Below, piece by piece: positions 1 through 23,793 of a DNA stretch of 56,323 bases. Origin of the DNA: Deltaproteobacteria bacterium GWC2_65_14 (GTDB lineage Bacteria > Desulfobacterota > Deferrimicrobia > Deferrimicrobiales > Deferrimicrobiaceae); NCBI GenBank assembly GCA_001797615.1, contig MGPV01000012.1:1-56323 (forward strand), written 5' to 3'. A program made the translations under genes and the position numbers. The notes under the pieces are model-generated. The model saw only the letters and a list, made by a program, of their open reading frames with translations. It was not told where the DNA came from and ran no database searches. How positions within the stretch are numbered: the first letter of the stretch is position 1; each line of letters starts with the position of its first letter.

Positions 1-1
1 G

Positions 2-418
2 TATGGGAACATCGTGGGGCGGAAGGCGTTCACGATCAGCGTCCCCTCCGAGGCCCATGCCCGGGAAGCGGATTATATCGGCATCGTATCCGGGAAGAAC
101 GCCGACAAGTTCGCCGCCGCCGGGCTCACCCCCGTCCGGAGCATCCTCGTGGACGCACCGTACGTCGGGGAATTTCCCCTTGTCCTCGAGTGTCGGCTTC
201 TCCATACGCTGGAGATCGGGCTGCACACCCAGTTCGTCGGGGAGATCCTGGACGTGAAGGCCGAGGAATCCGTGCTCGGCGAGAAGGGACTTCCCGACAT
301 CGAGAAGGTGAGGCCGATCCTCTTCGACCCGGAGATCAACACCTACCACGGGGTAGGAAAGCGTCTCGGACGTGCCTACTCGATCGGCAAAGCGATCGGG
401 CAGGGAGGAATCGAATGA
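2..418 (+). CDS. Flavin reductase-like (FMN-binding split barrel) protein, 5'-truncated by the window edge
   Basis: Frame is open from nt 2 (YGNIVGRKAFTISVPS...); EADYIGIVSGK, DAPYVGEFPLVLECRL and HTQFVGEILDV are typical flavoredoxin motifs. Confidence 0.85.
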   Translation, partial: YGNIVGRKAFTISVPSEAHAREADYIGIVSGKNADKFAAAGLTPVRSILVDAPYVGEFPLVLECRLLHTLEIGLHTQFVGEILDVKAEESVLGEKGLPDIEKVRPILFDPEINTYHGVGKRLGRAYSIGKAIGQGGIE

Positions 419-544
419 TTCCCGTCGACATCCTCAGCGACACGACGAGCGAAGTGCTCAAAAGGCATTCGACGAATCGCTTGATGCAGCCCTGCCGGAC
501 CGGCGAGCCGAGCCGGTAGACGGATACTTGAGGGTTATGCGGTC

Positions 545-800
545 ATGTGCGCAAAAAGGAAAGAGGATTCCTTCCGGGACTTCGTGCTCGATCAGCTGCG
601 CTCCCTGGAGGGCGTCACCTGCCGATCCATGTTCGGCGGGTACGGGCTCTACCTGGGGGCGGATTTCTTCGCCATCGTCTACGATGTATTACGAGGTCCC
701 GGAAGAGATCGTCGAGGACGAGGAGCAGCTGGCCTCCTGGGCGAGGGAGGCTGCGGCGCGAAAAGGGAAGGGGCGCGCGCCGGTCAGGAAAAAGAAGTAA
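545..800 (+). pseudogene. TfoX/Sxy N-terminal family gene with internal deletion and frameshift
   Basis: [35 protein letters not shown] in the frame of 545; the family C-terminus [22 protein letters not shown] continues in another frame from ~687 to TAA 800; the usual middle segment is missing. Confidence 0.8.
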
Positions 801-814
801 GCGGCCCCCCGACC

Positions 815-843
815 GCGTGAAGTCACAATTTGTGACTTCACGC
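815..843. repeat. Palindrome copy 1 of the TCRCAA-T-TTGYGA family
   Basis: GCGTGAAGTCACAA-T-TTGTGACTTCACGC, perfect 14-bp arms, overlapping the hicB stop codon. Confidence 0.95.
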
Positions 844-1266
844 CATTTCGACGATTAATTTCTTGCCGACGGCATCAGCCAACTTCGACAGTTGTTTGAG
901 CGTGGGATTGGCGACCTTTGGGTTTTCCCATGCCTGGTAGGACTGGTACGTGATGCGAAGGCGGCGTGCCACCTCTTTTTGGCTCAGTCCCAATTCAGTA
1001 CGAATTTTTCGAATCATCAAAGCGATACATACCTGGGGACTGGGCTCGACCCAGCGAACGTTTTTCCCCTTCAGGGACTTCGCTTCGGGAATCGAAAAAT
1101 TGCGTTCAAAGCGCACCGCAAGCCACCCGGAAAGAGCGTCTTTCGCCATTTTCAGAAGCTCTTCTTCCGTGTCTCCCTCGGTAACGCAACCGGGAAGACC
1201 GGGAAACTCCGCCCAGTATCCTCCTTCTTCGGCTTTGTGGATTTTGAGGGGATATGCAATTTTCAT
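838..1266 (-). CDS. hicB: HicB-family antitoxin with C-terminal XRE HTH
   Basis: YPLKIHKAEEGGYWAEFPGLPGCVTEGDTEEE (HicB fold) plus IRKIRTELGLSQKEVARRL (HTH); overlaps the hicA stop. Confidence 0.92.
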   Translation of the reverse strand: MKIAYPLKIHKAEEGGYWAEFPGLPGCVTEGDTEEELLKMAKDALSGWLAVRFERNFSIPEAKSLKGKNVRWVEPSPQVCIALMIRKIRTELGLSQKEVARRLRITYQSYQAWENPKVANPTLKQLSKLADAVGKKLIVEMA

Positions 1267-1442
1267 TTCAGGCCACCCAGCTTTCGGAGTGCTTCCAATG
1301 TTCCTTTCTTCAGATCTTTCTTCCCGTGTACCGGTACCGATATCGTCCTTGTTCCTTTTACGAGAATGTGATGGGAACCTTCTATCCGGTCCTCAACCCA
1401 TCCGGCGGCCTTCAGTATTCTGACGAGCTCCTTGCCCGTCAT
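1263..1442 (-). CDS. hicA: HicA-family mRNA interferase toxin (59 aa)
   Basis: MTGKELVRILKAAGWVEDRIEGSHHIL...VPVHGKKDLKKGTL with the GSH motif; true start is ATG 1442, since the longer track start lies upstream of the promoter. Confidence 0.92.
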   Translation of the reverse strand: MTGKELVRILKAAGWVEDRIEGSHHILVKGTRTISVPVHGKKDLKKGTLEALRKLGGLK

Positions 1443-1448
1443 ACCTGA

Positions 1449-1477
1449 AGGATACAGGCTATAACCTGTATTGTCAA
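1449..1477 (-). promoter_or_regulatory. Sigma70 promoter of hicAB with overlapping operator
   Basis: Minus strand TTGACA(1477-1472)-N17-TATCCT(1454-1449), then 6 nt and ATG 1442; inverted repeat ATACAGG-N6-CCTGTAT at 1452-1471. Confidence 0.85.
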
Positions 1478-1517
1478 TTCCCGGCCGAAATTCATACAAG
1501 TCCTTTCCGGCGAGGGT

Positions 1518-2087
1518 TCAGAACCCGATCCGCCGACCTGGAATCCTGGGCGGTTCCATGAGCGCCCGGATCGCGTCGAAGACCACGCGAAATTGGGCGT
1601 CATACGTTCCTTCGAGCGCGTCCACCTTTCGTGCCAGTTCCTCGTGGGATACGAGCATGCGCCGCATCCGGACAAACGCGCGCATGATGGCGATGTTGAC
1701 TTGCACGGCGCGCGGGCTGTTGAGGACACCCGATAGCATGGCAACGCCTTGCTCCGTGAAGGCAAAAGGCAAATATTTCCGATACTTGCCTCGTCCGGGC
1801 CTCTCTAAGGTCACAATTTGTGACCTTAGAGAATGGGCTTCGTCCCGCGAGAGTTGGAACATAAAATCTACCGGGAATCGTTCCGCGTTCCGTCTGACAG
1901 CCTGATTAAAGACCTTTGTCGGCACCCTGTACAATCCCGCCAGGTCCGCATCCAGCATTACACGATGACCACGAATTATATGAATTCGTTGAGAAATATC
2001 CTCCGCCCGAATGGGTGGCTTTGATATCGCAATTTGCGATTTCAAATCGGCGCTCATGCCGGATTGCTCATCAATTCTCGTGCCCAT
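1518..2087 (-). CDS. ORF6N-domain DNA-binding protein (start 2087 or 2057)
   Basis: [19 protein letters not shown]...[20 protein letters not shown]...LRSQIVTL...[35 protein letters not shown]; ends in RRIGF. Confidence 0.93.
1802..1832. repeat. Palindrome copy 2, inside the ORF6N CDS
   Basis: TCTCTAAGGTCACAA-T-TTGTGACCTTAGAGA, perfect 15-bp arms; encodes [10 protein letters not shown]. Confidence 0.95.
2021..2045. repeat. Palindrome copy 3, in the 5' part of ORF6N
   Basis: TTGATATCGCAA-T-TTGCGATTTCAA, 12-bp arms with 1 mismatch; encodes LKSQIAIS. Confidence 0.9.
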
Positions 2088-2121
2088 TGGCTCCGGACGT
2101 CACGAAAACAATGAGGTTTTT

Positions 2122-2146
2122 TTGAGGTCACAATTTGCGACCTCAA
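2122..2146. repeat. Palindrome copy 4, upstream of ORF6N
   Basis: TTGAGGTCACAA-T-TTGCGACCTCAA, 12-bp arms with 1 mismatch. Confidence 0.9.
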
Positions 2147-2225
2147 GGTATCGCTTTCCTCCCCTTTCGGCCGGGTCGCTCACATCATTGATGGTCTCGG
2201 TGAATGCGAGGGTATTTCTTGAAGG

Positions 2226-2246
2226 CTGATGGCGATTCGCCATCAG
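2226..2246. repeat. Perfect inverted repeat in the ORF6N/WYL divergent region
   Basis: CTGATGGCGA-T-TCGCCATCAG (10-bp arms). Confidence 0.85.
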
Positions 2247-2297
2247 TTGCGCTGAGAGGCCCCCGGATAGGTTACGGAGTCGACTTCTCTCGCTCCC

Positions 2298-2332
2298 ATG
2301 CGACAGGGACTGTCGCATCCTCCCCGTATCCT
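2298..2332 (+). promoter_or_regulatory. Putative WYL-regulator binding site followed by a -10 element
   Basis: ATGCGAC-N7-GTCGCAT at 2298-2318 (arms extend to 9 bp), with TATCCT at 2327-2332; resembles the DriD box as I recall it (ATACGAC-N7-GTCGTAT). Confidence 0.65.
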
Positions 2333-2396
2333 GACCCAAAAGACGGGGGGGCAGCGGATGCCGCCGCGACGGAGGCCATTGGAACAGGGAAAACTC

Positions 2397-2558
2397 ATGG
2401 CCGTGACGCTTGTGTGCCTCTCCTGCCGGGAGGAGCGGGTGATCCACGTTCCGCGCGAACGGGGCGCGAAGGGAAGGGCGTACTGGGAGTGCTTCGAGTG
2501 CCAGGGCCCCGGAGCGCGCTCCCAAAGGGGCGGATCAAAGGGCCTCGGGAAAGATTAA
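2397..2558 (+). CDS. Small Cys4 (CxxC...CxxC) putative zinc-ribbon protein, 53 aa
   Basis: MAVTLVCLSCREERVIHVPRERGAKGRAYWECFECQG...; purine-rich sequence upstream of the ATG; directly upstream of the WYL gene. Confidence 0.6.
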   Translation: MAVTLVCLSCREERVIHVPRERGAKGRAYWECFECQGPGARSQRGGSKGLGKD

Positions 2559-2669
2559 GGAAATGGCAAAGCGCGATCGAAGCCGGCGGATTCGGCGGAT
2601 GTACCTTCCCGGGGGGATGCGATACATTCGTGGAGTCGGCAGTCAGACAAGTTTGCGCGGAGGGGCGCG

Positions 2670-3668
2670 ATGGCCAAGACCAGGAGATCCTGGTCCGGGG
2701 GGGCGAAGCGGCGGACCAAGCCCCGCCCCATGACCAAGCCGGCCATGATGGACTGGGCGCTTCGGCTCCTGCGGCTCCTGAACGAGCGGAAGGTCCTCAC
2801 CTCGCGGGTCGTGGCCGAGGAGTTCGGCGTGAACATCCGGACGGCCCAGCGGTACCTCCTGTACCTTTCCGCCCTGCCGTGCGTTATCGCGGACGAGGAA
2901 AAGCACAGCTACACGCTCACATCGGACTACGTGGTGAGCGACAAGATCCTGAACGTCTCCGAGATGTCGCTGGTGTGCGCCCTGATCGACTACGCGGTCC
3001 ACATCTTCGGCCCCGAGCACTCCAAATTCCTCACGTCGCTCAAGAACCGGATCTTCCGGATGCCCGACGTCTACCGGATCGTCAAGGACGAGGCGATCGA
3101 CATGGAGAAGGTGGCGGCCGTCCAGCTCGACCTGGAGCGGCACATCAAGAACCGCGAGGTGATCTCCTTCGGCTACCGCAAGTCCGGCAAGCGCTACACG
3201 GTGGAGCCGTACCGGATCCTCTACGCGGGCGGGTTCTGGTACCTTGCGGCGCGGCACGACGGGATGCTGAAGAAATTCCTGCTCGACATGATCGAGGGGG
3301 TGCGGCCCGCGGGGAGGAGCTACGCGGAAGTCCCCGATCCGATCCGCCAAGCCCTGGCCGAGGCGCAGACCGCCTGGTTCCACGACGCCCCGCCCGACCG
3401 GGTGACGGTGGAGTTCGACGCGGAGGTCGCCCACTTCTTCGAGCGGAAGCTCTTCTTCCCCCGCCAGGAGATCGTGGAGCGGAAGGGAAACGGCAACCTC
3501 GTCCTGGCCTTCGACGCCCACAACGAGATGGACCTGCGCGAGCACCTCGCGCGCTGGATGCCGTACTTCCGGGTCATCTCCCCGGACCGATATCGGGAGT
3601 ATGTAGCCCATGTGGCAGGGGAGTGTGCGGGGAAGAACCGGGAGCAGGTCACCTATCCCTCGACTTGA
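2670..3668 (+). CDS. wHTH-WYL-WCX transcriptional regulator
   Basis: GGAGG RBS; HTH LTSRVVAEEFGVNIRTAQRYL; WYL core VEPYRILYAGGFWYLAA; C-terminal LREHLARWMPYFRVISP. Confidence 0.92.
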   Translation: MAKTRRSWSGGAKRRTKPRPMTKPAMMDWALRLLRLLNERKVLTSRVVAEEFGVNIRTAQRYLLYLSALPCVIADEEKHSYTLTSDYVVSDKILNVSEMSLVCALIDYAVHIFGPEHSKFLTSLKNRIFRMPDVYRIVKDEAIDMEKVAAVQLDLERHIKNREVISFGYRKSGKRYTVEPYRILYAGGFWYLAARHDGMLKKFLLDMIEGVRPAGRSYAEVPDPIRQALAEAQTAWFHDAPPDRVTVEFDAEVAHFFERKLFFPRQEIVERKGNGNLVLAFDAHNEMDLREHLARWMPYFRVISPDRYREYVAHVAGECAGKNREQVTYPST

Positions 3669-3716
3669 TGCGAGGGCAGTGATTCAATATGGGGGACCGG
3701 GCAGCGGAGGGGTTTC

Positions 3717-4049
3717 ATGAAGTGCGATTTGGATAAACTTATTTCACGGATTCTTGAATTCCGGGATCGGCGCAACTGGGCCCAGTTCCACAACCCCAAA
3801 GACCTGGCCCTCGGGCTTTCCGTCGAAGCCGCCGAGCTCAACGAACAGTTCCTGTGGAAAAAACCGGAGGACGCTGATCCGAAGCGGGTTCGGGAAGAAC
3901 TGGCCGACGTGCTCATATTCGCCCTGATGCTCCTCGAGAAGTACAAGCTCGACTTCGAGGAAATCGTCCTCGAAAAGCTTGCGGCTAACGAGGAAAAATA
4001 TCCGGTGGACAAGGCCCGCAACCGCGCAGCGAAATATACCGACCTCTGA
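3717..4049 (+). CDS. MazG-like (all-alpha) nucleotide pyrophosphohydrolase
   Basis: FRDRRNWAQFHNPKDLALGLSVEAAELNE...EELADVLIF...KLAANEEKYP. Confidence 0.92.
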   Translation: MKCDLDKLISRILEFRDRRNWAQFHNPKDLALGLSVEAAELNEQFLWKKPEDADPKRVREELADVLIFALMLLEKYKLDFEEIVLEKLAANEEKYPVDKARNRAAKYTDL

Positions 4050-4052
4050 CGA

Positions 4053-5936
4053 ATGAGACTCTACGCCGGCACCTCGGGACAGTTCGTCGAAGACACGGTC
4101 CTGAACCAGATCGCCGGCAAGCTCAGGAATGCCTTCTTCGGTCATTACCGGTACAACCCGCCCCAGGCCGAAGTCCATTCGTGGCAGAACTCTCTCCGGG
4201 CCATGGCCGGGATACTCCAATACGGAGAACTGCTGGACCATGGAGTCATGCTCGAGTACCAGCTTCCTCTCACCTCCCGTCGTCTCGATTTCATGGTCAC
4301 CGGAAAGGGGCAGAGCAACGCCGACAACGCGGTGATCGTCGAGCTCAAGCAGTGGGAGAAGTGCGGCCCTGCGGACGGGGAGAACGAGGTTGCCACATTC
4401 GTTGGGGGAACGACGCGGGAGGTCCTGCATCCGTCGGCGCAGGTAGGACGCTACCGGATGTACCTGTCGGATACCCATACGGCATTCCACGAGGGAAATG
4501 ACCCTGTGTCCCTTGCGGCATGCGCCTATCTCCACAACTATCCCCATGATCCCGATGATGTTCTGTACGATACGAAGTTTGAAGGCGTGCTGAGAAGCGA
4601 TCCGATTTTCACCATGGATGATGCTCCGGCACTCATGGGCTATCTGCAGGAGAGGCTTTGTTCCGGCCGGGGCATGGAGGTCCTGAAGCGGGTCGAAGAA
4701 AGCCGTTACCGGCCCAGCCGAAAGTTGATGGAGCACGTGGGGCAGGTCATCAACGGAAATTCCCGGTATGTCCTCCTGGATGAGCAGGTCGTCGCGTACG
4801 ACAAAGTGCGCGCGTTGGCGAAGAAGGGGTTCCATGACAGGCGCAAGACCGCCATCATCATCAAGGGAGGCCCCGGGACCGGCAAATCGGTGATCGCCAT
4901 CAAGCTCATGGCGGACCTGCTGCTGAACAGCTACAACGCCCACTATGCCACGGGGTCGAGGGCATTCACGGAGACGCTCCGGAACATCATCGGGAACCGG
5001 GGAGCCGTGCAGTTCAAGTACTTCAACAGCTATTCGGCCGCCCAGGCCGATGAGATCGATGTCCTGATCGCGGATGAGTCTCACCGCATCCGCAAGACCA
5101 GCGCCAGCCGCTTCACTGCCTCGGCAGATCGCTCCGACCTCGAGCAAATAGGGGAACTGTTGCGGGCCGCCAAAGTGTGCGTTTTCCTGATCGACGACGT
5201 CCAGGTAGTGCGGCCGAACGAAATCGGCTCCGTGGAGTATATCCGGCGGCACGCGCAGGCGATGAAATGCAGCATCTTCGAATACGAGCTCGAGGCACAG
5301 TTCCGCTGCAGCGGATCGGACGCCTTCGTGAACTGGATAGACAATACCCTAGGCATCCGGCGCACGGTCAACGTCCTGTGGGAAGGGAACGAGTCCTTCG
5401 ACTTCGAGATCTTCGATTCACCCCAGGCGCTTGAGGGAGCCATCCGGGACAAAGCCGCTCAGGGTTACACGGCCCGGATGAGCGCCGGCTTCTGTTGGCA
5501 ATGGTCGAAGCCCAGGCCGGACGGGACCCTGGTGGAGGACGTGGCGATCGGCGATTACCTGCGGCCCTGGAACGCAAGGCCGGAGGCATCCCGGCTGGCG
5601 AAGGGAATTCCCAAAGCATCGCTGTGGGCCCATCAGCCGGGGGGCATCGATCAGATCGGCTGTATCTACACGGCGCAAGGTTTCGAGTTCGATTTCGTGG
5701 GCGTCATATTCGGTGCGGACCTGATCTACAGGTTCGACCGGCAGGAGTGGGTCGGGGACAGACGTCAGTCGTACGATACCGTTGTGAAGAGATCCGGAGA
5801 CAAATTCGTCAACCTGGTAAAAAACACCTACAGGGTCCTTCTTTCAAGGGGTATGAAGGGGTGTTACGTTCATTTCCTCGACAGGGAAACAGAGAACTTT
5901 TTCAGGAGCCGGATGGAGACGGGGAATCGTCCGTAG
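4053..5936 (+). CDS. DUF2075-family protein: PD-(D/E)xK-like nuclease fused to a P-loop helicase (Schlafen group-3 helicase type)
   Basis: LEYQLPLTSRRLDFMV...IVELKQW; Walker A GGPGTGKS; Walker B LIADESHR; GCIYTAQGFEFD; NTYRVLLSRG. Confidence 0.9.
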   Translation: MRLYAGTSGQFVEDTVLNQIAGKLRNAFFGHYRYNPPQAEVHSWQNSLRAMAGILQYGELLDHGVMLEYQLPLTSRRLDFMVTGKGQSNADNAVIVELKQWEKCGPADGENEVATFVGGTTREVLHPSAQVGRYRMYLSDTHTAFHEGNDPVSLAACAYLHNYPHDPDDVLYDTKFEGVLRSDPIFTMDDAPALMGYLQERLCSGRGMEVLKRVEESRYRPSRKLMEHVGQVINGNSRYVLLDEQVVAYDKVRALAKKGFHDRRKTAIIIKGGPGTGKSVIAIKLMADLLLNSYNAHYATGSRAFTETLRNIIGNRGAVQFKYFNSYSAAQADEIDVLIADESHRIRKTSASRFTASADRSDLEQIGELLRAAKVCVFLIDDVQVVRPNEIGSVEYIRRHAQAMKCSIFEYELEAQFRCSGSDAFVNWIDNTLGIRRTVNVLWEGNESFDFEIFDSPQALEGAIRDKAAQGYTARMSAGFCWQWSKPRPDGTLVEDVAIGDYLRPWNARPEASRLAKGIPKASLWAHQPGGIDQIGCIYTAQGFEFDFVGVIFGADLIYRFDRQEWVGDRRQSYDTVVKRSGDKFVNLVKNTYRVLLSRGMKGCYVHFLDRETENFFRSRMETGNRP

Positions 5937-5987
5937 CAGAGAGCAGGAAGGGATCGTCATGAGCCCGCAGGCCAGGCGAGCGAGTGC

Positions 5988-6899
5988 ATGAATGCATTCG
6001 TAGGGATCACCGACTGGGACTGGTTCGATCTGCTGCGCACCCGCCCGGAGCTCGAGGAGGTGAACTTCTGGCAACCTTCCGGCTCCCGCCAGTTCCGTGC
6101 CCTGAACCCCGGCGAGCTGTTCCTCTTCAAGCTGCACAGTCCGCGGAATTACATCGTCGGTGGAGGTCTCTTCGCGCATTCCAGTCTGTTGCCGATCAGC
6201 CTTGCGTGGGAGGCCTTCGGGATGGCAAACGGCGCCGCTGATCTCGTGCAGATGCGGTCCCGCGTCGAACGATATCGCCGTCAAGGGCAGGATCATTCCA
6301 CTGATTACATCATCGGATGCATTCTCCTCGAGCAGCCGTTCTTCCTCCGTGAAGACCAGTGGGTTGGGGTGCCGCACGATTGGAGCCCGAACATCGTCCA
6401 GGGGCGCGGCTACGACCTGACGGTTGAACCCGGCCTGACGCTTTGGGCCCGGTTGCAGACTGCAAGAGGAGCCGCCTTGGAGGTGCGGGAAGAAGAAGCG
6501 AGGTACGGCAGGCCGATCTTGTCACTACCCCGTCTTGGCCAGGGATCCTTTCGCGTGATAGTGACGGATGCGTATGAGCGGCGTTGCGCGCTGACCAATG
6601 AGCGTACTCTTCCTGCTCTGGATGCCGCCCATATCAAGCCGTATTCGGACAGCGGCGGGCACCGGGTCGAAAACGGCCTGCTTCTGCGCAGAGACCTTCA
6701 CGCCCTGTTCGACCGGGGCTACGTGACCGTGACGCCGGACCTTGTCGTCGAGGTCAGCCGCCGCATTCGGGAGGAGTTCGAGAACGGTCGTGACTATTAC
6801 AGGCTGCACGGCGAACCAGTCCGTCCGCCCGGAAACCCGGTGCATCGCCCATCCGCGGAATACCTGAGATGGCACAACGAGTGCGTCTTTCGAGGATAG
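5988..6899 (+). CDS. HNH endonuclease (HNH_2 type) with a possible PUA/EVE-like N-terminal domain
   Basis: C-terminal CALTNERTLPALDAAHIKPY...NGLLLRRDLHALFDRG; N-terminal VNFWQP...LNPGELFLFKLHSPRNYIVGGG. Confidence 0.85.
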   Translation: MNAFVGITDWDWFDLLRTRPELEEVNFWQPSGSRQFRALNPGELFLFKLHSPRNYIVGGGLFAHSSLLPISLAWEAFGMANGAADLVQMRSRVERYRRQGQDHSTDYIIGCILLEQPFFLREDQWVGVPHDWSPNIVQGRGYDLTVEPGLTLWARLQTARGAALEVREEEARYGRPILSLPRLGQGSFRVIVTDAYERRCALTNERTLPALDAAHIKPYSDSGGHRVENGLLLRRDLHALFDRGYVTVTPDLVVEVSRRIREEFENGRDYYRLHGEPVRPPGNPVHRPSAEYLRWHNECVFRG

Positions 6900-6999
6900 C
6901 GAGGCAAGATGCTGCTTTCTGTGGCGTTTCTTAACCTTGTGATGTGGATGAAGTGACGGCGGGAAATATCCCGAAAATAAATTTCGAAATGGAAGAGTA

Positions 7000-7406
7000 A
7001 TGAACAATCCCAGCGCCTTGAGGGTAACCTGCGCCGTCATTGAAAGGGATGGCCACATTCTGGCCGCCCAGCGCAGCAAAACGATGAGCCTGCCGCTCAA
7101 ATGGGAATTCCCCGGCGGCAAGGTTGGAGAGGGAGAGACTCCGGAAACCTGCCTTGTCAGGGAGATCCGGGAGGAGATGGGCGTCGATGTGGAAATCCTC
7201 CGGTCTCTGCCGGCCTCACCGTACAGGTATGCCGACAAGGCCATCGCGCTCCTCCCTTTGGTCTGTAGAATCGCCGGGGGATCCATCGAGCTCTTGGAAC
7301 ACAAGGAGATCTCCTGGGGAGATCTCTGGATCTCGACTGGGCCCCGGCGGACGTCCCGGTCCTCCGGTCTTATATACTCAGCCGGAAAGATTCCGCGCAC
7401 CTGTAG
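7000..7406 (+). pseudogene. MutT-like NUDIX hydrolase, frameshifted near the 3' end
   Basis: Nudix box GGKVGEGETPETCLVREIREEMGV; the expected tail LDWAPADVPVL lies in a different frame from 7332 to TAG 7406; the junction contains GAGATCTC twice. Confidence 0.8.
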
Positions 7407-7461
7407 TCATTCCGCACGGTATTTGACCGTCCGGCTGAGGGCGACGCAACCTGGCGGCGGA

Positions 7462-8109
7462 TCAAACTCTTCTTACGGTTATATTCCCAGCGTGGTGGAT
7501 GATTCGGAACTTTCCGTAACAACCGTTTCTGAAGAGCCCCGTGGCGACGGCCTTGATTCGAGCCGGAAAGCGGGTGATATCCTGGTTGCTCCATATCGCT
7601 TTGAAGGTTCGATTGTTGTCGGGTAGCAAGGTAACCGTCATGTCTCCCGGATAGCCGCCTCTCTCGCCGGTTTCGAAGGTCACTTCCTCTCCATTCATGA
7701 TTTCATCCAGGTTTTCCGCGACGGCCTTTGTAAGGGAATCCGCGTAGGTGGATCGGGCGGTGGCGATGGGAATATCCGTTTCAGCCTCTTTCCGGTAGAA
7801 GTAGCGCGCCAGGGCGTACCTGACCCGGTCGGCGAGCAGGTCCAGGAATCGAGGATCGCCCCAATATTCCCGGCAGTTCATCCGGATCGCAAAGCGGGCC
7901 TTGCCACGGTCCAGTTCAAAGAACTTTTCCCCCGTTCTTGCCATCTTTCCGAGCGGCATGTTGACCAGGTGCCTGGCGGCCCGGTCCAGAGGGAAGTTTT
8001 GCGGGTCGGTTGCCCGCGCCAGTTCGTCCCAATCGGAGCGGCGCTCCGGGTTGGCGAGATACCAGTCGAGGAATTTCCGGGCTATGGCGGAGATGTCCCA
8101 TTCAGTTCC
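7462..8109 (-). pseudogene. Hypothetical protein, probably 5'-truncated
   Basis: Frame of track ORF 7462..7959 stays open and protein-like upstream (GTEWDISAIARKFLDWYLANPERRSDWDEL) to ~8109, with no start codon. Confidence 0.5.
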
Positions 8110-8573
8110 GACTTGCGGCCAAGGTGTTGCGGGCGGAGATCGAGCGGTACCGGGAACGCAGCCAGGGGCCTGTGCTTCGCCGCGCGTCGGAATTGTTTGC
8201 GAGCGTGACGCAAGGGAGGTTCGCAGGTCTTGCCCCCGATTACGACGCCGGGGACACCCCCGTTCTCGTCGGTTTGCGGCCGGGAAGCGAGAAGGTTTCG
8301 GTGCAGGGGATGAGCGACGGCACTCAGGACCAGCTGTATCTCGCCCTACGGGGGGCCTCCCTCGAAAAATTCGGCGGGGAGGGCGAGCCGCTTCCGCTGC
8401 TCGTCGATGACGCCTTGGTGAACTTCGACGATATCCGGGCGAAGGCGGCGCTCAACATCATGGCGGAGCTGGCGAAGAGAACGCAGGTCATCTTCCTCAC
8501 CCACCACAGTCATCTTGTCGAGCTCGCGAAGGACGCCGTCGACGCCGGCATCCTGCATCTCCAATCGCTCTGA
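8106..8573 (+). pseudogene. C-terminal remnant of a YhaN/SbcC-like ABC-ATPase
   Basis: RLAAKVLRAEIERYRERSQGPVLRRASELF...MSDGTQDQLYLALR...PLLVDDALVNFDD...VIFLTHH; no Walker A and no N-terminus. Confidence 0.85.
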
Positions 8574-8957
8574 TCGGTGAAAGGCGAGTAGGGTCTCGAC
8601 AACTCCAGCGTGCCGGACACAGTGGCCAGGGTCGCGTCAAAGCACTCGACAGACCTAAATTCTGAGAACCGCGGCATAGGCATACCAAATTCGCTTGCTG
8701 TTGTCCGTCTCCTGCAAGCGCGTTCAAGTTGTAGCAGTGCGGGACGGAGTCCAAGTGACACGCTGCGTCTGCACGGCCCCCGGCTGGCATTCACCGTGCA
8801 ATATATTCATACAAGACAGGATTTCCTGAGGAAACCTGATGTTTGTGGGGATATACAGGATGGGTCTCGGACTCCTGGTGTTCGGTAAGTGGACCGGCAA
8901 AGGGTTACCCATTCTACTGTGCTCATGTGGGCACTCTGAATTATTCCTTGGAAGGCA

Positions 8958-8986
8958 TTGACAACACATTCCCCCAGAGGCATAAT
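8958..8986 (+). promoter_or_regulatory. Sigma70 promoter of the HigBA-like operon
   Basis: TTGACA-N17-CATAAT, 5 nt before ATG 8992. Confidence 0.85.
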
Positions 8987-8991
8987 CCGGA

Positions 8992-9354
8992 ATGAGGTGG
9001 GCTGTCGAGTACACGAACGAGTTCGGGGCATGGTGGGATTCCCTGGGCGAAGGAGAACAGGAAAGCGTGGATGCGTCGGTCCGATTGTTGGAAGAGCTTG
9101 GTCCTGCGCTTCCGTATCCATACAGCTCGGATGTCAGGGGATCGCGTCACGGGAACATGCGTGAACTGCGGATACAACACGAGGGTGAACCATATCGTGT
9201 GCTTTATGCGTTCGATCCGCGCCGGGTTGCACTCCTGCTCATCGGAGGAAAGAAATTCGGGGATGACAGATGGTACAGGAAGTATGTCCCGAAAGCCGAA
9301 AAGATATATGACGAACACTTGAAGTCATTGGAAGAGGAGAGGAATAAGCCATGA
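8992..9354 (+). CDS. RelE/HigB-like toxin (Gp49-like family)
   Basis: WAVEYTNEFGAWWDSL...LLEELGPALPYPYS...MRELRIQHEGEPYRVLYAFDPRRVALLLIGGKK; toxin-first order. Confidence 0.9.
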   Translation: MRWAVEYTNEFGAWWDSLGEGEQESVDASVRLLEELGPALPYPYSSDVRGSRHGNMRELRIQHEGEPYRVLYAFDPRRVALLLIGGKKFGDDRWYRKYVPKAEKIYDEHLKSLEEERNKP

Positions 9355-9713
9355 AAAAAATCCGGACGCGTCCATATGGGGAACTAAGAGCAAAAATGTC
9401 TCCCGCGTCCAGGGCGAGGGCGGAGACGAGGGCCAAGGAGATGCTGGCCGAGATGCCGCTATACGAGCTGCGGCACGCACGGGAGATGTCCCAGAAGCAT
9501 CTCGCGGAGATCCTCCGGATCAACCAGGCGTCCGTCTCGAAGCTCGAGCGAAGGACGGATATGTACATCAGCACTCTGCGGAATTTCATCGAGGCGATGG
9601 GAGGCCAACTGGAGATCAAGGCCGTCTTCCCGGATGGCGCGGTCCGGATCAGCCAGTTCGAGGAACTGGCTGAGAGCGCTCCAATCCCAGCGGGCCGAAG
9701 AATGTCGACCTGA
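9351..9713 (+). CDS. XRE-family HTH antitoxin (HigA-like)
   Basis: LYELRHAREMSQKHLAEILRINQASVSKLERRTDMYISTLRNFIEAMGG; ATGA overlap with the toxin. Confidence 0.9.
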   Translation: MKKIRTRPYGELRAKMSPASRARAETRAKEMLAEMPLYELRHAREMSQKHLAEILRINQASVSKLERRTDMYISTLRNFIEAMGGQLEIKAVFPDGAVRISQFEELAESAPIPAGRRMST

Positions 9714-9830
9714 GGCTGTTTTCTTTCCCCCCGGCTTTACTGTGAACTTCAACGAACGCATTCGCATGGTATGAACTGCAGGACACCCTGGGCCTCGCCC
9801 GGTTGCTGGGGATTATAGTCCATGTTGCCG

Positions 9831-9871
9831 TTGACATTGCGCAACGATCGTGTACATAATCGTTACACGAT
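9831..9871 (+). promoter_or_regulatory. Promoter and operator of the Phd-PIN operon
   Basis: TTGACA(9831)-N18-CATAAT(9855-9860); inverted repeat ATCGTGTA-N9-TACACGAT (9847-9871) straddles the -10. Confidence 0.8.
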
Positions 9872-9883
9872 GGAGGACGCGAT

Positions 9884-10171
9884 ATGAAATTTCTGAGCGT
9901 GCGCGATTTGCGGGGAAAGGCCGCGAAAGTCTGGAAGGATCTGCCGGGAGAGAAGGAGATGGTCGTCACCAGCAACGGCCGGCCCATCGCCATTCTGTCA
10001 TCGGTCGGTGAGTCGAACGTCGAGGAGTCGTTGGCGGCGATTCGCCAGGCCCGGGCCATCGCAGCGGTAGCGGCCATTCAGCGCCGGTCGGCGGAGCAGG
10101 GAACCGACAGATTGTCTTCCGAAGAGATCGATGCGGAGATCAGGGCGGTCCGGGAAAAGCGCCGCCGTTGA
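9884..10171 (+). CDS. Phd/YefM-family antitoxin
   Basis: MKFLSVRDLRGKAAKVWKDL...VVTSNGRPIAIL; GGAGG RBS. Confidence 0.9.
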   Translation: MKFLSVRDLRGKAAKVWKDLPGEKEMVVTSNGRPIAILSSVGESNVEESLAAIRQARAIAAVAAIQRRSAEQGTDRLSSEEIDAEIRAVREKRRR

Positions 10172-10584
10172 ACATCGTCCTCGACACGAACGTCCTCGTG
10201 GCGGGCCTGTTGTCGCCGTTCGGTCCGTGCGGGGAGATCGTACGGATGGTTTCCTCCGGGGAATTGACCCTCTGTCTCGATGCCCGGATCGTGACCGAAT
10301 ACAGCGAAGTCCTGAAACGGCCGAAATTCCGGTTCGAAGAGGAAAAGGTCGATGCGTTACTGGATTTCATCGACCTCAGGGGGCGGACGGTGGCGTCTTC
10401 GCCCCTGCGGAAAGCCCTTCCCGATCCCGCCGACGAACCGTTCCTTGAGGTCGCAATCGCCGGGCGGGCGGCATGTCTTGTCACGGGGAACCGGGTCCAT
10501 TTTCCCGGCAGGCTGCGCCAACGCGTGATGGTTCTCACGCCGCGGGAATTTCTGGACCGATACAGGAAGCGAACCGTCCTCTAA
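10168..10584 (+). CDS. PIN-domain toxin (VapC-like, PIN_3 type)
   Basis: IVLDTNVLVAGL...EYSEVLKRPKF...DPADEPFLEVA...LVTGN. Confidence 0.9.
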   Translation: MNIVLDTNVLVAGLLSPFGPCGEIVRMVSSGELTLCLDARIVTEYSEVLKRPKFRFEEEKVDALLDFIDLRGRTVASSPLRKALPDPADEPFLEVAIAGRAACLVTGNRVHFPGRLRQRVMVLTPREFLDRYRKRTVL

Positions 10585-10682
10585 GGACGGACGAGAAAAA
10601 TATCAGCAATGCTCTCTGTCGCGACAAGTTCGGAACCCTGTCCGCGATTGGCCGGAATACATGGATCGAGGGCAGGCATCCG

Positions 10683-11309
10683 GTGACACACGGCAAGAGC
10701 CGGTCGAAGCCGGCCGTGACGATGCAGGACGTCCGAACCCGTCTTGCGACAATGGACAAAGGCACGCTTGCCGACATGCTCGTCGATCAGGCGATGGAGG
10801 ACGACCGATTGCGGCAGCGTCTGCTCATGAAGGCGGCGAGGAAAGGCCCAAAGGGGCTTGATGTGGCCACGTATCGTCGGGCCATCGACGAGGCGGTCGA
10901 CGCAGGCGGTTTCGTGGATTACCGCGCCGTCGAAAAGGCGATCGAATCCGTCGACGACTCGGACGGCCACATGGGCGGAATCCTCGAACGTCTCCAGGAA
11001 ATCCATCACGAGGCGTGCAAGAAGGCCAAACCCGAGCCGGAAGCGTTGGCAAGGAGGCTCTTCGAATGGGAATTGCGAACGGATTGGGATACCTTCCACG
11101 GCGCCGCGCAGACGTACGCGCGTATCCTTGGAGAGGAAGGGCTGGCGGTCTACCGGAAGCTCGCCGAGGCGGAATGGGCCAAGGTGCTGGCCGTGGGCCA
11201 TGGAGGGCGGCTCCTGTTCGTCGTGATCGTGGTCAGAAAGGACATGATCCGAGTCATATCGGCGCGGGACATGAATCGGAAGGAAAGGAAGGTGTACGAG
11301 TCATCATGA
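10683..11309 (+). pseudogene. Chimeric ORF: internally deleted helical protein (SWIM-finger-associated type) fused in frame to the C-terminal half of a BrnT toxin
   Basis: Helical part ...GGFVDYR|AVEKAIESVDDSDG...AEAEWAKV, then |LAVGHGGRLLFVVIVVRKDMIRVISARDMNRKERKVYE (BrnT RxISAR motif) from ~11187. Confidence 0.7.
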
Positions 11310-11593
11310 AAAAAGTACCCAAATTTGCATCGGAGGCCGAAGAGAGGCGGTTCTGGGAATCTGCGGATTCGACGGAGTATGTGAACTGGAAGAAAGCGCA
11401 GCGGGTGGTTTTTCCAAATCTTAAACCATCTCTTAGGACCATCTCCGTGCGGCTTCCCGAATCAATGATTGAGGAACTGAAACTCCTGGCGAACAAGCGG
11501 GATGTTCCCTATCAGTCATTGCTCAAGATTTTCTTGGGTGAGCGGATCGAACAAGAGCTTCGGTTGGTTCATCCGAAACGGGCAAAGGCCTAA
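11306..11593 (+). CDS. CopG/BrnA-type antitoxin
   Basis: MKKVPKFASEAEERRFWESADSTEY...TISVRLPESMIEELKLLANKRDVPYQSLLKIFL; ATGA overlap with the BrnT remnant. Confidence 0.88.
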   Translation: MKKVPKFASEAEERRFWESADSTEYVNWKKAQRVVFPNLKPSLRTISVRLPESMIEELKLLANKRDVPYQSLLKIFLGERIEQELRLVHPKRAKA

Positions 11594-11629
11594 CTAATCA
11601 TTAAGGGATAGGTAACGGGTAACGGGTAG

Positions 11630-11658
11630 TTGACATTTGTACGTGAATGGAATATCTT
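11630..11658 (+). promoter_or_regulatory. Sigma70-like promoter
   Basis: TTGACA-N17-TATCTT in an AT-rich patch. Confidence 0.6.
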
Positions 11659-11680
11659 GAAAGTAATTGTTTTATATAAT

Positions 11681-11926
11681 AAATTCGAAATATCTGCCCC
11701 GGAGGCGAAGGAAGTTTCCCTGGCAGGGAGTTTCAACCACTGGAATACCCAGGCGAATCCGATGAAAAAGGATAAGAAGGGAACGTGGAAGGCGACTCTC
11801 TCCCTTGAAACGGGAAGATACGAGTACCGTTTTTTTGCCGACGGCAACCGGGAGAACGATCCATATTGTTCTTGCGGCGTCGCGAATGAATTCGGAGGCC
11901 AGAACTGCGTAAAGATTGTCGCGTAA
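11681..11926 (+). pseudogene. CBM48/early-set glycogen-binding domain protein lacking a credible start
   Basis: KFEISAPEAKEVSLAGSFNHW...WKATLSLETGRYEYRFFADG...NEFGGQNC; the upstream in-frame region is the promoter and has no RBS/ATG. Confidence 0.7.
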
Positions 11927-11967
11927 GGGGTGATCGTGTTCCCTGCGTCTTCGGAAGAGGTTGACCC

Positions 11968-12366
11968 GTGATTCCGATGAAACTCGACCATCGTCACAAG
12001 ACGGAGCCTGTTTTCCTGATAGGCCCCGGGATAGTGGGGGGCCTGTTGGAGGGATTCGCGGGGAGCTGCCGCTCACAGGAAGGCCTTGAATGGGCGGAGG
12101 AGCGCCTGAAGGGAGTTGGTTTCACAAAGCGTGAGGAAGGGAATTGGGTATCGTATCGGAGGGGAATGGATGGCTACCATCTGTATGCGGATCCACGCCC
12201 TGGCACCCGCATCAACATCTACGTGTACCCCGGAGAGAAAGTGGGTGTGAAGAGAATAAGACGATCCAGTTCTCCTTTCCCCTTTCTGGTGGGCATGCCC
12301 AATACATGGAAGCATGATCTTGAGGAAAAACTGGCGTCAAAGATCAGAAAATATTGTTACGAGTGA
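11968..12366 (+). CDS. Hypothetical protein
   Basis: 132-aa ORF with protein-like composition; no recognised motif. Confidence 0.5.
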   Translation: MIPMKLDHRHKTEPVFLIGPGIVGGLLEGFAGSCRSQEGLEWAEERLKGVGFTKREEGNWVSYRRGMDGYHLYADPRPGTRINIYVYPGEKVGVKRIRRSSSPFPFLVGMPNTWKHDLEEKLASKIRKYCYE

Positions 12367-12542
12367 AGAGGGGTTCCTGCAGGGGATCTCCAGAAAGGTA
12401 CTGACCTCCGGGCATATCCCTCCACAGTCCAGTTGGACGTCCCCGTTTCAGCGAGCAACGGAAATACGTTTTCTGCAGGGGCATTCCTCACGTTCCATGC
12501 CCGGGCGATGCCTCCCCGCCGAAGATCGGGGGCAGGTCAGGC

Positions 12543-13292
12543 TCAGGTCATGTGGATCCCGCCGCTTACCGGGAGATATGCCCCCGAGACAAACCGTGCC
12601 TCTTCGGAGGCCAGCAGGACGACCGCCCCCGCCACATCATCGGGGAGACCGATCCGCTTCAAGGGGGTGATCAGGGCGGCTGCGTCCTTTTCCTTTTTCG
12701 AGAGGAAGGCGGTGGCATCGGTCTCGGTAAGGCCCGGCGCCACCACGTTGACCCGGATCCCCTTGGGACCCAGCTCCAGGGCCAGCGATTTCATGAAGGC
12801 GTCCAGGCCGGACTTGGCCGTGCTGTGCGCGCAGAACCCTTCTCCCACAACCCGGGAGAGACCGCTGCTGATCCCGATGATGCATCCTTTTTTTCTCATC
12901 ACCATCGCGGGGACCACGGCCTTGCAGCAGAAGAACGCGGCCTGCAACTCTCCCACGAGTTTCGCCTGGAAGTCCTTCCATGGAATTTTGAGGAAGGGGA
13001 GAACCGGGAACGAGATGGAGGCGTTCAGGACGAGGGTGTCGATCGGGCCCAGCGTTTCCGCCACCTTCCGGGACATCGCTTCCACCTGGTTCATGTTCCT
13101 CACGTCCGCCCGGACGGCGATCGCGTTCCCGCCTTCGTCCACGATCTCCGACACCACCTTGCGGGCGGCGTTCGCGCTCCGGAAGTAGTTCACCGCGACG
13201 GCCGCGCCGTGCCTGGCCAGCATCCTGGCCGTGGCCGCGCCGATTCCCCGGCTTGCACCGGTCACCAGGGCCACTTTGTCTTTCATCGGCAT
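12543..13292 (-). CDS. Short-chain dehydrogenase/reductase (FabG-like)
   Basis: TGASRGIG; LVLNAS; catalytic position reads HSTAK; VNVVAPGLTET. Confidence 0.92.
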   Translation of the reverse strand: MPMKDKVALVTGASRGIGAATARMLARHGAAVAVNYFRSANAARKVVSEIVDEGGNAIAVRADVRNMNQVEAMSRKVAETLGPIDTLVLNASISFPVLPFLKIPWKDFQAKLVGELQAAFFCCKAVVPAMVMRKKGCIIGISSGLSRVVGEGFCAHSTAKSGLDAFMKSLALELGPKGIRVNVVAPGLTETDATAFLSKKEKDAAALITPLKRIGLPDDVAGAVVLLASEEARFVSGAYLPVSGGIHMT

Positions 13293-23104: not shown

Positions 23105-23793
23105 GGCCGCCTCTGCTGGAGGAGGCTCAGGAAGACGTTGACGATCAGGGCGACCGCCATGAGGACCACTCCCAGGGCCATCCCCTCGGCGAACTTCCCC
23201 TTGCTGGTCTCCAGGGCGATCGCGGTGGTCATCGTCCGGGTGTAGCCGCGGATGTTGCCGCCGAGCATCATCGCGATTCCGACCTCCGAGACCACCCGGC
23301 CGAACCCCGCGACGACGGCGGCCAGGATTCCGAAGCGGATCTCGGAGACGAACTTCAGCCAGGCCCGGACGGGGCCGGCCCCCAGGGTCATCGCCGTCGG
23401 GAGGATCCTTGCGTCGGCCCCCTTCGCGGCGACCATGGCATAGTGCGCCACGATCGGGGTGCACAGGATGGTCCCCCCGATCACGATCGCCGCCGGCGTG
23501 AAGAGAAGGCCGAGGGAGCCCAGGGGACCGCGCCGGCTGAGGAAGCCGTAGACGACCAGGCCGACCAGGACCGTCGGAAGGGCGACGAGGCTGTTCAGCA
23601 GCGTCACGGCCGGCCGCTTGAGGGGAAACTCGGAAAGCCCCACCGCCAGCCCCAGTGGGATCCCCATGAGGGAGGCGAGCAGGATCGAGCCGCCCGAGAC
23701 GAGGAGGGAGGTGAGCACCGCATGCAGGATGTCGGGATCCGCCGAGAGAAGGAGCGACAGGGCCGCGTTCATCGAATCGGCGAAAAATTCCAC
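23101..23793 (-). CDS. tupB: Tungstate ABC transporter permease
   Basis: ALPTVLVGL, GFGRVVSEVG, GGNIRGYTRTMTTAIALETSKG. Confidence 0.92.
   Translation of the reverse strand: MEFFADSMNAALSLLLSADPDILHAVLTSLLVSGGSILLASLMGIPLGLAVGLSEFPLKRPAVTLLNSLVALPTVLVGLVVYGFLSRRGPLGSLGLLFTPAAIVIGGTILCTPIVAHYAMVAAKGADARILPTAMTLGAGPVRAWLKFVSEIRFGILAAVVAGFGRVVSEVGIAMMLGGNIRGYTRTMTTAIALETSKGKFAEGMALGVVLMAVALIVNVFLSLLQQRRP

Follow-up and report, generated by a model that had tools for sequence, protein, structure and literature searches.

What switches on an operon that opens with a perfect palindrome, a very small gene and the gene of a WYL-domain regulator, and what might its first product be? The locus in question lies near the start of a 56,323-nucleotide (nt) contig of Deltaproteobacteria bacterium GWC2_65_14 (MGPV01000012.1), the whole of which was analysed and is called the window below. 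A preliminary description of this DNA had pointed to ATGCGAC-N7-GTCGCAT, to TATCCT at a distance of 8 nt, and to a following open reading frame (ORF) with CLSC...CFEC, and had ascribed the site to the adjacent WYL protein by analogy with DriD, a Caulobacter activator that senses single-stranded DNA (ssDNA). All of these sequence elements are as it described them. From comparisons of sequence and of modelled structure, we hold with moderate confidence that the WYL regulator uses the palindrome, here called the WYL box, as its operator, and that this box together with TATCCT would form an activator-dependent promoter of the DriD/PafBC type.

The WYL box and its distance to the −10 element

The features on which this proposal turns are the following.

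2298..2318, no strand assigned: WYL box, a 9-3-9 palindrome, ATGCGACAG GGA CTGTCGCAT, with the core CGAC-N7-GTCG
2327..2332, + strand: −10 hexamer TATCCT (TAnnnT), 8 nt past the box and 10 nt past its GTCGC
2339, + strand: predicted transcription start, an A, the 7th nt after the −10 hexamer, placed from homologous promoters
2226..2246, no strand assigned: second palindrome, a perfect 10-1-10 repeat, CTGATGGCGA-T-TCGCCATCAG, 52 nt upstream of the box
2358..2558, + strand: zinc-ribbon micro-gene, 66 amino acids (aa), core VTLVCLSC...VPRERG...YWECFECQ
2670..3668, + strand: WYL regulator, 332 aa, with winged helix-turn-helix (wHTH), three-helix bundle, WYL and WCX

The window reads ATGCGAC at 2298-2304, AGGGACT at 2305-2311 and GTCGCAT at 2312-2318. 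The 7-N7-7 palindrome of the preliminary description is therefore present, but its real extent is 9-3-9. Its core, CGAC-N7-GTCG at 2301-2315 (CGACAGGGACTGTCG), is the operator core of DriD and DdaA (PafBC has GTCgg as its proximal element), and the 8 nt that separate the 21-bp box from TATCCT at 2327-2332 are CCTCCCCG. A −35 hexamer is missing, its place being filled by CAGGGA, and no canonical sigma-70 promoter was found within 1900-4100. With the −10 hexamer set at −12 to −7, the box spans about −41 to −21, its centre falls near −31, and its proximal GTCGC occupies −27 to −23. Homologous promoters carry an ATG 6-7 nt after the −10 hexamer, and the start predicted near 2339 falls at the place of that ATG. 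The box lies 352 nt 5′ of the WYL start codon, with the micro-gene in between; a search of this interval for intrinsic terminators gave none. An additional weak, undetected promoter may lie 5′ of the WYL gene.

The second palindrome is kept in four related loci (L114, L032, L085 and L096) and deleted in two (L112 and L115). It is not required for the box promoter and may be the site of a second regulator; as it has no T-run, it is not an intrinsic terminator.

Could the box itself be a chance inverted repeat, or the hairpin or terminator of a neighbouring gene, with a coincidental likeness to DriD sites? Perfect 7-N7-7 palindromes are indeed common in this G+C-rich window (13, versus 7.7 ± 2.4 in simulated sequence), and 2.4 chance occurrences of the pattern first described are expected once three mismatches are allowed. 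Against these counts stands the score given to 2298-2332 by a position weight matrix for which 25 sites, all from loci outside the window, were used. The window site scored 43.0 bits, the runner-up in 56 kb scored 3.7, and the top scores of eight simulated windows ran from −0.4 to 7.3. No other box was found in the 56-kb window, where the only other CGAC-N7-GTCG, at 23562, scores as noise. A hairpin or terminator is disfavored as well: there is no T-run after the box, the sole Rfam match is RsmV at 12.6 bits versus a gathering score of 100, and the 5′ untranslated region folds in an ordinary way (z-score −0.38).

Conservation speaks against coincidence as well. The loci surveyed, gathered by homology to the WYL protein or the micro-protein, comprise 31 from genomes, 79 from metagenomes and 9 from micro-protein look-ups, 843 kb in total. 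In an intergenic alignment of seven close relatives, which has otherwise diverged, the box is the only long invariant block. Across the survey, GCGACAG-N3-CTGTCGC with up to two mismatches occurs in about 38 places. On the WYL gene's strand, TAnnnT follows GTCGC after exactly 10 nt in 29 of these; symmetric as the box is, only one site has it at the other flank. Such a fixed distance from operator to −10 in promoters that have no −35 is one mark of the DriD/PafBC class. Of the matrix matches that reach 14 bits or more and have a mapped WYL gene nearby, all 21 share that gene's strand; their distances from it are 0.16-7.2 kb on the upstream side and 1.6-3.1 kb on the downstream side. Many boxes lie beyond 900 nt upstream of the WYL homologues and came from scans of whole loci (1.3-7.2 kb upstream). 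Box and spacing persist where WYL identity falls to about 32% (L086 and L087), and in L087 the box promoter and the WYL gene point away from each other, an arrangement also seen in Caulobacter. These loci are not copies of one recent mobile element, their WYL proteins being 32-92% identical and their neighbouring genes different.

The chance explanation was accordingly rejected, on the matrix score and on conservation across dozens of loci in which the box recurs with a one-sided −10; because the box is conserved, we regard coincidence as extremely improbable. The preliminary description had named as damaging to its own case a site and peptide that were not kept beside orthologous WYL genes. 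Instead, box, spacing and micro-gene are all retained beside homologous WYL genes.

The WYL regulator and its direction of control

What kind of protein would read this box? Pfam recognizes the WYL (8.6e-11) and WCX (1.4e-9) domains. An AlphaFold2 (AF2) model with a predicted local distance difference test (pLDDT) score of 75 places helices at 24-66 and a wing at 72-83, helices at 96-113, 119-130 and 145-160, a beta region at 163-217 and WCX at 243-324. The resulting order of wHTH, helical bundle, WYL and WCX is that of the DriD/PafBC class. Among solved structures, Foldseek gave DriD at 8e-15 (about 20% identity over 325-335 aligned columns), PafBC at 4e-11, CapW at 4e-9 and BrxR at 6e-9. Sequence and profile searches of the Protein Data Bank (PDB) likewise gave DriD chains as best; PafBC was marginal and found in the profile search only, and CapW and BrxR were absent at E ≤ 1. 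No BrxR/CapW model of PADLOC matched, only generic CRISPR-associated WYL models. The closest relatives in sequence and structure are thus DriD and PafBC, with BrxR and CapW behind them. Of the 95 WYL relatives found in databases, about 70 are 45-92% identical; all 95 either lack a name or are labelled YafY-like, and their source assemblies belong to Deltaproteobacteria, Desulfobacteria or the Deferrimicrobium type.

The recognition helix (56-66) reads N-I-R57-T58-A-Q-R61-Y, and R57, T58 and R61 are invariant in 29 homologues. R57 and R61 are spaced as are R37 and R41 of DriD and R46 and R50 of PafB, an equivalence drawn by pattern and helix position only. Some residues of DriD that contact ssDNA have partly conserved counterparts, namely Y169 for Y168, K201 for R204 and F203 for W206; at the position of F203, some homologues have W.

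The first 20 residues encoded by the WYL ORF (2670-2729) form an extension rich in Lys and Arg, ahead of MTKPAMMDW, where many homologues start. GGAGG stands 6 nt before the ATG at 2670, and the alternative start is the ATG at 2730. Given this GGAGG and the similarly basic extensions of many homologues, the extension may be translated, and it might contact DNA.

It is useful to set the locus beside the WYL systems that have been characterized. DriD binds ATACGAC(X)7GTCGTAT, as the preliminary description had correctly stated, and the site at the driD promoter is ATACGACAGTTACTGTCGTAT; its R37 and R41 read two guanines per half-site (PMC10853764). The window box has the same 9-3-9 format and an identical CGAC-N7-GTCG core and equals the driD-promoter site at 17 of 21 positions, and the architecture of the protein is likewise of the homodimer type. 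According to a 2026 cryo-electron microscopy report, DriD sites, set at a single fixed spacing from the −10, overlap the stretch where a −35 would be; the site beside driD drives CCNA_03891/CCNA_01149, a divergent operon that begins with a gene of unknown function (PMC13004042). The promoter oligonucleotides printed there include GTCGCAA-TGCGCGGA-CAATCT and GGCGCAT-GGCTCGGC-CAAGGT (PMC13004042); by our reading of these Methods sequences, each 21-bp site is followed after 8 nt by CAAnnn (CAATCT, CAAGGT or CAAGCC). The box next to the window's regulator gene would likewise drive a small gene of unknown function.

The two systems also differ. The promoter in the window is co-directional with the regulator gene, as in an autoregulatory operon, whereas that of Caulobacter is divergent; many targets of the present family look leaderless; and the DriD targets are didA, recA, recJ and bapE, as against ARPP-1, an AddAB-like nuclease-helicase, MazG, a helicase and HNH here. 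A DriD orthologue would be expected to be close to CCNA_01151 and to have its box about 17 nt before its own start codon. With about 20% identity, and a box 352 nt away with a gene between, the window protein is instead a remote relative.

The promoters of PafBC, an actinobacterial regulator whose mode of action is called 'sigma adaptation', have the consensus tGTCgg(N10)tA(N3)T and no −35 (PMC8635444). In the window, TGTCGC, the 10 nt ATCCTCCCCG and TATCCT reproduce this geometry to the base pair. PafBC is also the second-best structural match, and it reads the two guanines with two arginines four residues apart, the spacing also of R57 and R61. It differs in being a heterodimer or fusion whose recognition element is not a palindrome and which needs polymerase in order to bind DNA; the window, like DriD, has a single gene and a perfect palindrome. 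DdaA of Acinetobacter, a WYL activator of aciT and recA that uses CGACNNNNNNNGTCG (PMC13010146), shares the CGAC-N7-GTCG core and activates a small protein gene, that of the division inhibitor AciT, upon DNA damage. Its site lies about 160 bp upstream of aciT and it controls a chromosomal DNA-damage regulon; no fixed geometry from box to −10 is described in the text of that report.

These comparisons suggest a mechanism. A WYL dimer would bind the two CGAC half-sites through R57 and R61 of the recognition helix. The proximal half-site at −27 to −23 would replace the −35 element, and the protein would recruit housekeeping RNA polymerase to a −10-only promoter, becoming active in response to ssDNA. 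The transcript would run from near 2339 across the micro-gene and the WYL gene, and probably on through the MazG-like, Schlafen-type helicase and HNH genes that follow. Since the WYL gene would lie in its own transcription unit, the regulator would be autoregulated and induction would be self-amplifying.

We infer activation rather than repression from promoter anatomy only, and the opposite direction of control must be weighed. The box could be the operator of the WYL protein, but of a BrxR/CapW-type repressor that sits over the −35 region until ssDNA releases it, giving negative autoregulation. BrxR and CapW are likewise wHTH-WYL-WCX regulators that head variable defence cargo, as the window's regulator does, and a protein over the −35 region would also occlude polymerase. 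CapW binds ssDNA as DriD does, so the ligand cannot discriminate between the two models. Even so, repression strikes us as rather unlikely. There is no recognizable −35 and no canonical promoter to repress, which is what BrxR and CapW act on. The BrxR operator, with 10-11-bp arms and a 5-bp spacer, lies downstream of the −10 (PMC9122601), whereas the window box is 9-3-9 and upstream of it. DriD and PafBC outrank CapW and BrxR in structure and profile, and no BrxR/CapW model of PADLOC was matched. The distance from box to −10 is, as in the activators PafBC and DriD, fixed to the base pair whether the gene that follows encodes the micro-protein, the 160-aa family described below, a WG-repeat protein or the WYL protein.

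A number of observations weigh against the box as the operator of a DriD-like activator. First, the similarity to DriD is remote: at about 20% identity, the phmmer match (E 2e-3) covers the WYL-WCX region only, and a phmmer search of the PDB with the wHTH only gave no DriD match. Since the wHTH has no detectable DriD match, the arginine pair is suggestive only. The R-T-x-x-R pattern may moreover be common among related helix-turn-helix regulators, and hence may be unspecific. Second, the central spacer is G+C-rich (GGA/GAA; GGA in the window box), unlike the usual A+T-rich centre of DriD sites; a GC-rich centre was tested in the DriD site as a rigidifying mutant (PMC10853764). The distance from the DriD site to its −10 was, in addition, read from the oligonucleotides in the Methods and not from a figure.

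Third, the co-occurrence of box and WYL gene arises partly by construction, because the loci were gathered through homology to the WYL protein or the micro-protein. About half of the loci with long flanks have no box within the flanks covered; L002-L006 (5-kb flank), L037, L058 and others are boxless in the sequence covered. An AddA-like gene precedes the WYL gene in L002-L006, as also in L076, whose box sits 7.2 kb upstream. Boxless AddAB-type operons would thus be explained by a box about 7 kb upstream, beyond the flank. A scan of viral contigs that began from the box gave two matches and was uninformative: the first is this module again, bordering an integrase/terminase element, and the second, around which about 2 kb are free of WYL genes, is of a frequency on the order of chance. 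Finally, the low-GC island around the locus is of the toxin-antitoxin/defence kind, and the WYL regulators described from such islands are repressors (PMC9122601, PMC11662680). In L112 and L115, the WYL gene is broken while box, micro-gene and cargo are kept, a loss that is easier to understand if the regulator represses.

The micro-gene and the loss of ARPP-1

Is the small ORF behind this promoter a gene at all? The preliminary description had proposed a 53-aa Cys4 peptide. A real gene with a Cys4 core is indeed present, but its product is probably longer. Possible starts lie at 2298, 2358 and 2397, the last giving the 53 aa. We consider 2358, giving 66 aa, the probable start. The N-terminus MPPRRRPLEQGKL that it adds is conserved in four relatives (P0149, P0150, P0152 and P0155), and relatives carry GGGAGG 7 nt upstream of the ATG equivalent to 2358. 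The coordinate 2298, at which the span given in the preliminary description begins, is an ATG inside the box, and the 86-aa ORF that it opens is an artefact of reading through the operator.

A profile from ten sequences derived from the loci found 60 clusters among 5.8 billion proteins, all hypothetical or unnamed and without a Pfam family, and a full HMMER pass over 1.84 billion representatives found 77 at E ≤ 1e-3. Nearly all of these 77 have 57-120 aa and the signature [VI]xLxCxxC-x8-10-PRER-x7-8-WECxxCQ. Differences between homologous DNAs fall on codon positions 1, 2 and 3 in the numbers 271, 191 and 477, from pairs that are not independent, and this third-position excess is the pattern of a translated gene. 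By this sequence evidence, the micro-gene is conserved and coding. Its AF2 model is a small three-stranded Cys4 ribbon (pLDDT 69). Against Pfam the best match was Zn_ribbon_GRF_2, at 17.5-18.2 bits versus a cut-off of 27 and in 2 of 32 members; NCBIfam and PADLOC gave no match, and the best Foldseek hit in the PDB (E 0.42) was not significant. Nothing in these searches speaks directly for the damage or infection effector that the preliminary description had proposed.

In most relatives the operon runs from the micro-gene to ARPP-1, then in some cases cargo, and then the WYL gene, the micro-gene being the first, translationally coupled cistron. That tight coupling elsewhere suggests a function of the peptide jointly with ARPP-1. 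In the window this partner is gone. Alignment by blastn of the window with L114, L115 and L112, together with the gene table of L114, mapped the deletion as follows.

2590..2598, no strand assigned: deletion junction, at which about 1.0 kb of L114 (2084-3093, the whole ARPP-1 gene) is absent from the window

As ARPP-1 is deleted, the peptide is orphaned in the window. Moreover, a stop, TAA, stands where L114 has AAG, so that, compared with the 83-aa relatives, the tail lacks 17 aa. The ARPP-1 deletion is also present in two sister loci, L112 and L115, which keep the box, the micro-gene and the cargo; a further 328 bp are missing from within the WYL gene of both (at 1738-1742 and 1024-1030, respectively, corresponding to window 2890-3217), so that a WCX fragment remains.

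These observations raise the alternative that the micro-gene in the window is a decaying remnant and that the WYL gene and the cargo downstream are all that the promoter still expresses, a situation compatible with either mode of regulation. The loss of ARPP-1 and the truncated tail would fit this, as would the Shine-Dalgarno sequence, weakened from GGGAGG to GGGGGG, the overlap of the micro-gene with the ARPP-1 start in nearly all other loci, and the closest WYL homologue, L032 (91% identity), where the box stands directly before the WYL gene with no micro-gene. Yet no change has befallen the Cys4 core or any nearly invariant residue, and the frame is kept in 4 of 4 ARPP-1-less or window-like relatives (P0146, P0149, P0150 and P0152), two of which have a broken WYL gene. 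About half of the differences among those relatives are synonymous, though the counts are too small to decide. On balance we regard decay as conceivable but doubtful.

Targets of the box and the island setting

The genes behind the box in other loci fall into three classes. In class (a), the box precedes the zinc-ribbon micro-gene, which usually shares an ATGA overlap with the ARPP-1 gene (PF20208); then follow DUF2779, or an AddB-like and AddA-like nuclease-helicase pair, and finally the WYL gene. This class comprises L001, L009, L049, L053, L060, L076, L088, L090, L104, L114 and L116-L118. With the micro-protein as query, the WYL gene was found to follow in the same operon in L114, L116, L117 and L118. 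In class (b), which lies downstream of the WYL gene, the target is a 160-aa family without a Pfam match that precedes, or is fused to, WG-repeat proteins. Its members share the conserved NVFNTNHGMFIF...EIEMYFSTPQxPPFFEEL, with the ATG 7 nt past the −10, and the second WYL-box promoters concerned are these.

L049 5483-6005: second WYL-box promoter, class (b)
L065 1612-2134: second WYL-box promoter, class (b)
L102 1221-1743: second WYL-box promoter, class (b)
L066 1351-2929: second WYL-box promoter, class (b)
L048 4952-5492: second WYL-box promoter, class (b)
L051 5692-6814: second WYL-box promoter, class (b)

In class (c) the box precedes the WYL gene directly (L032 and probably L007). In classes (a) and (b) the ATG comes 6-7 nt after the −10, which implies leaderless mRNAs that start there. 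The subgroup of the window has instead a 25-nt leader with a Shine-Dalgarno sequence, GGGAGG in L114 and GGGGGG in the window. Cargo is diverse, with an SNF2/NOV_C helicase in L111-L114, an AddAB-like nuclease-helicase with Peptidase_U49 in L076, and REase-ARP, Nmad3 and others elsewhere.

In L076 (2036-7983), an AddB-like PD-(D/E)XK protein (922 aa) and an AddA-like UvrD/PD-(D/E)XK helicase-nuclease (1060 aa) lie between ARPP-1 and WYL, and an AddAB-like pair is also found upstream of the WYL gene in L002-L006. Such a pair would itself make ssDNA, the presumed inducer. In two further loci (L116 8863-12330 and L120 7736-8149), the module of micro-gene, ARPP-1 and WYL comes directly after a phage-type integrase gene, with a slight overlap. 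The integrase at that junction closes a block with a terminase, a Prim-Pol and a DEAD helicase, and IMG/VR lists this junction among its viral contigs. The module may be carried by an integrative element or occupy its attachment site.

In the window itself, the genes around the regulator are these.

3717..4049, + strand: MazG-like nucleoside triphosphate pyrophosphohydrolase, PF12643 at 5e-15, syntenic in L115
4053..5936, + strand: Schlafen group 3/DUF2075-type helicase, PF09848 at 3e-83, 3 nt after the MazG-like stop codon
5988..6899, + strand: HNH_2 endonuclease, PF13391 at 3e-12, last gene of the likely operon
1518-2087, − strand: ORF6N, upstream of the box
838-1499, − strand: HicA/HicB, upstream of the box
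7000-7626: NUDIX, within the low-GC block
8992-9713: Gp49 and HTH_37, within the low-GC block
9884-10171: Phd, within the low-GC block
10473-11593: BrnT/CopG, within the low-GC block

The MazG-like gene is probably co-transcribed with the WYL gene, from which a 48-nt gap without a terminator separates it. The helicase has weak PADLOC matches to PDC-S41, AbiO and Nhi, and the HNH_2 gene is partly similar to a phosphorothioate-DNA restriction family (NCBIfam NF045808, below cut-off). G+C content is 57-61% over the window's first 13 kb and 65-69% beyond, and positions 1-13000 are a toxin-antitoxin/defence island. No tRNA gene was found in the window.

Two observations concern the DNA upstream of the operon. 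Four copies of a palindrome centred on TC(A/G)CAATTTG(T/C)GA, with arms of up to 15 nt, lie at 815-843, 1802-1832, 2021-2046 and 2121-2146. Two fall within the coding sequence of ORF6N, contributing SQIVT and SQIAIS to its product, and two flank the HicAB-ORF6N block; they are kept in L114 and could be protein-binding or recombination sites, or fragments of the ORF6N gene. Around 545-800, two ORFs that overlap (545-820 and 372-800) have the appearance of a single gene whose reading frame shifts near 685; its first half presumably resembles TfoX-N, the C-terminal part continuing in another frame.

WYL regulators have been known in two forms, as chromosomal DNA-damage activators (DriD, PafBC and DdaA) and as defence-island repressors (BrxR and CapW). 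This locus and some 40 related promoters suggest a third situation, in which activator-type promoter anatomy, matching that of PafBC and DriD to the base pair, heads mobile conflict operons in a distant lineage. The DriD/PafBC circuit would then extend to the defence island of an uncultivated deltaproteobacterium-like lineage, and would there include a micro-protein family that appears to be undescribed. We go further only tentatively, and regard what follows as a possibility on the doubtful side. An ssDNA-sensing activator of the DriD/PafBC type may be the self-amplifying master switch of mobile conflict and defence operons in uncultivated Desulfobacterota-like bacteria, acting through −35-less promoters and mostly leaderless transcripts. 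The zinc-ribbon family that is its first product (CxxC-PRER-WECxxCQ) may carry out a separate function, for instance by binding nucleic acid or polymerase as a partner of ARPP-1, and survive as an orphan in the window. If the circuit is as proposed, the mechanism of a box at −26 plus a −10, with no −35, would be ancient and widespread, and GCGACAG-N3-CTGTCGC-N10-TAnnnT (GCGACAGNNNCTGTCGC-N10-TANNNT) would serve as a search rule for regulons in metagenomes. The unannotated zinc-ribbon family, of 55-85 aa, and the ARPP-1 system would then be genes induced by damage or infection.

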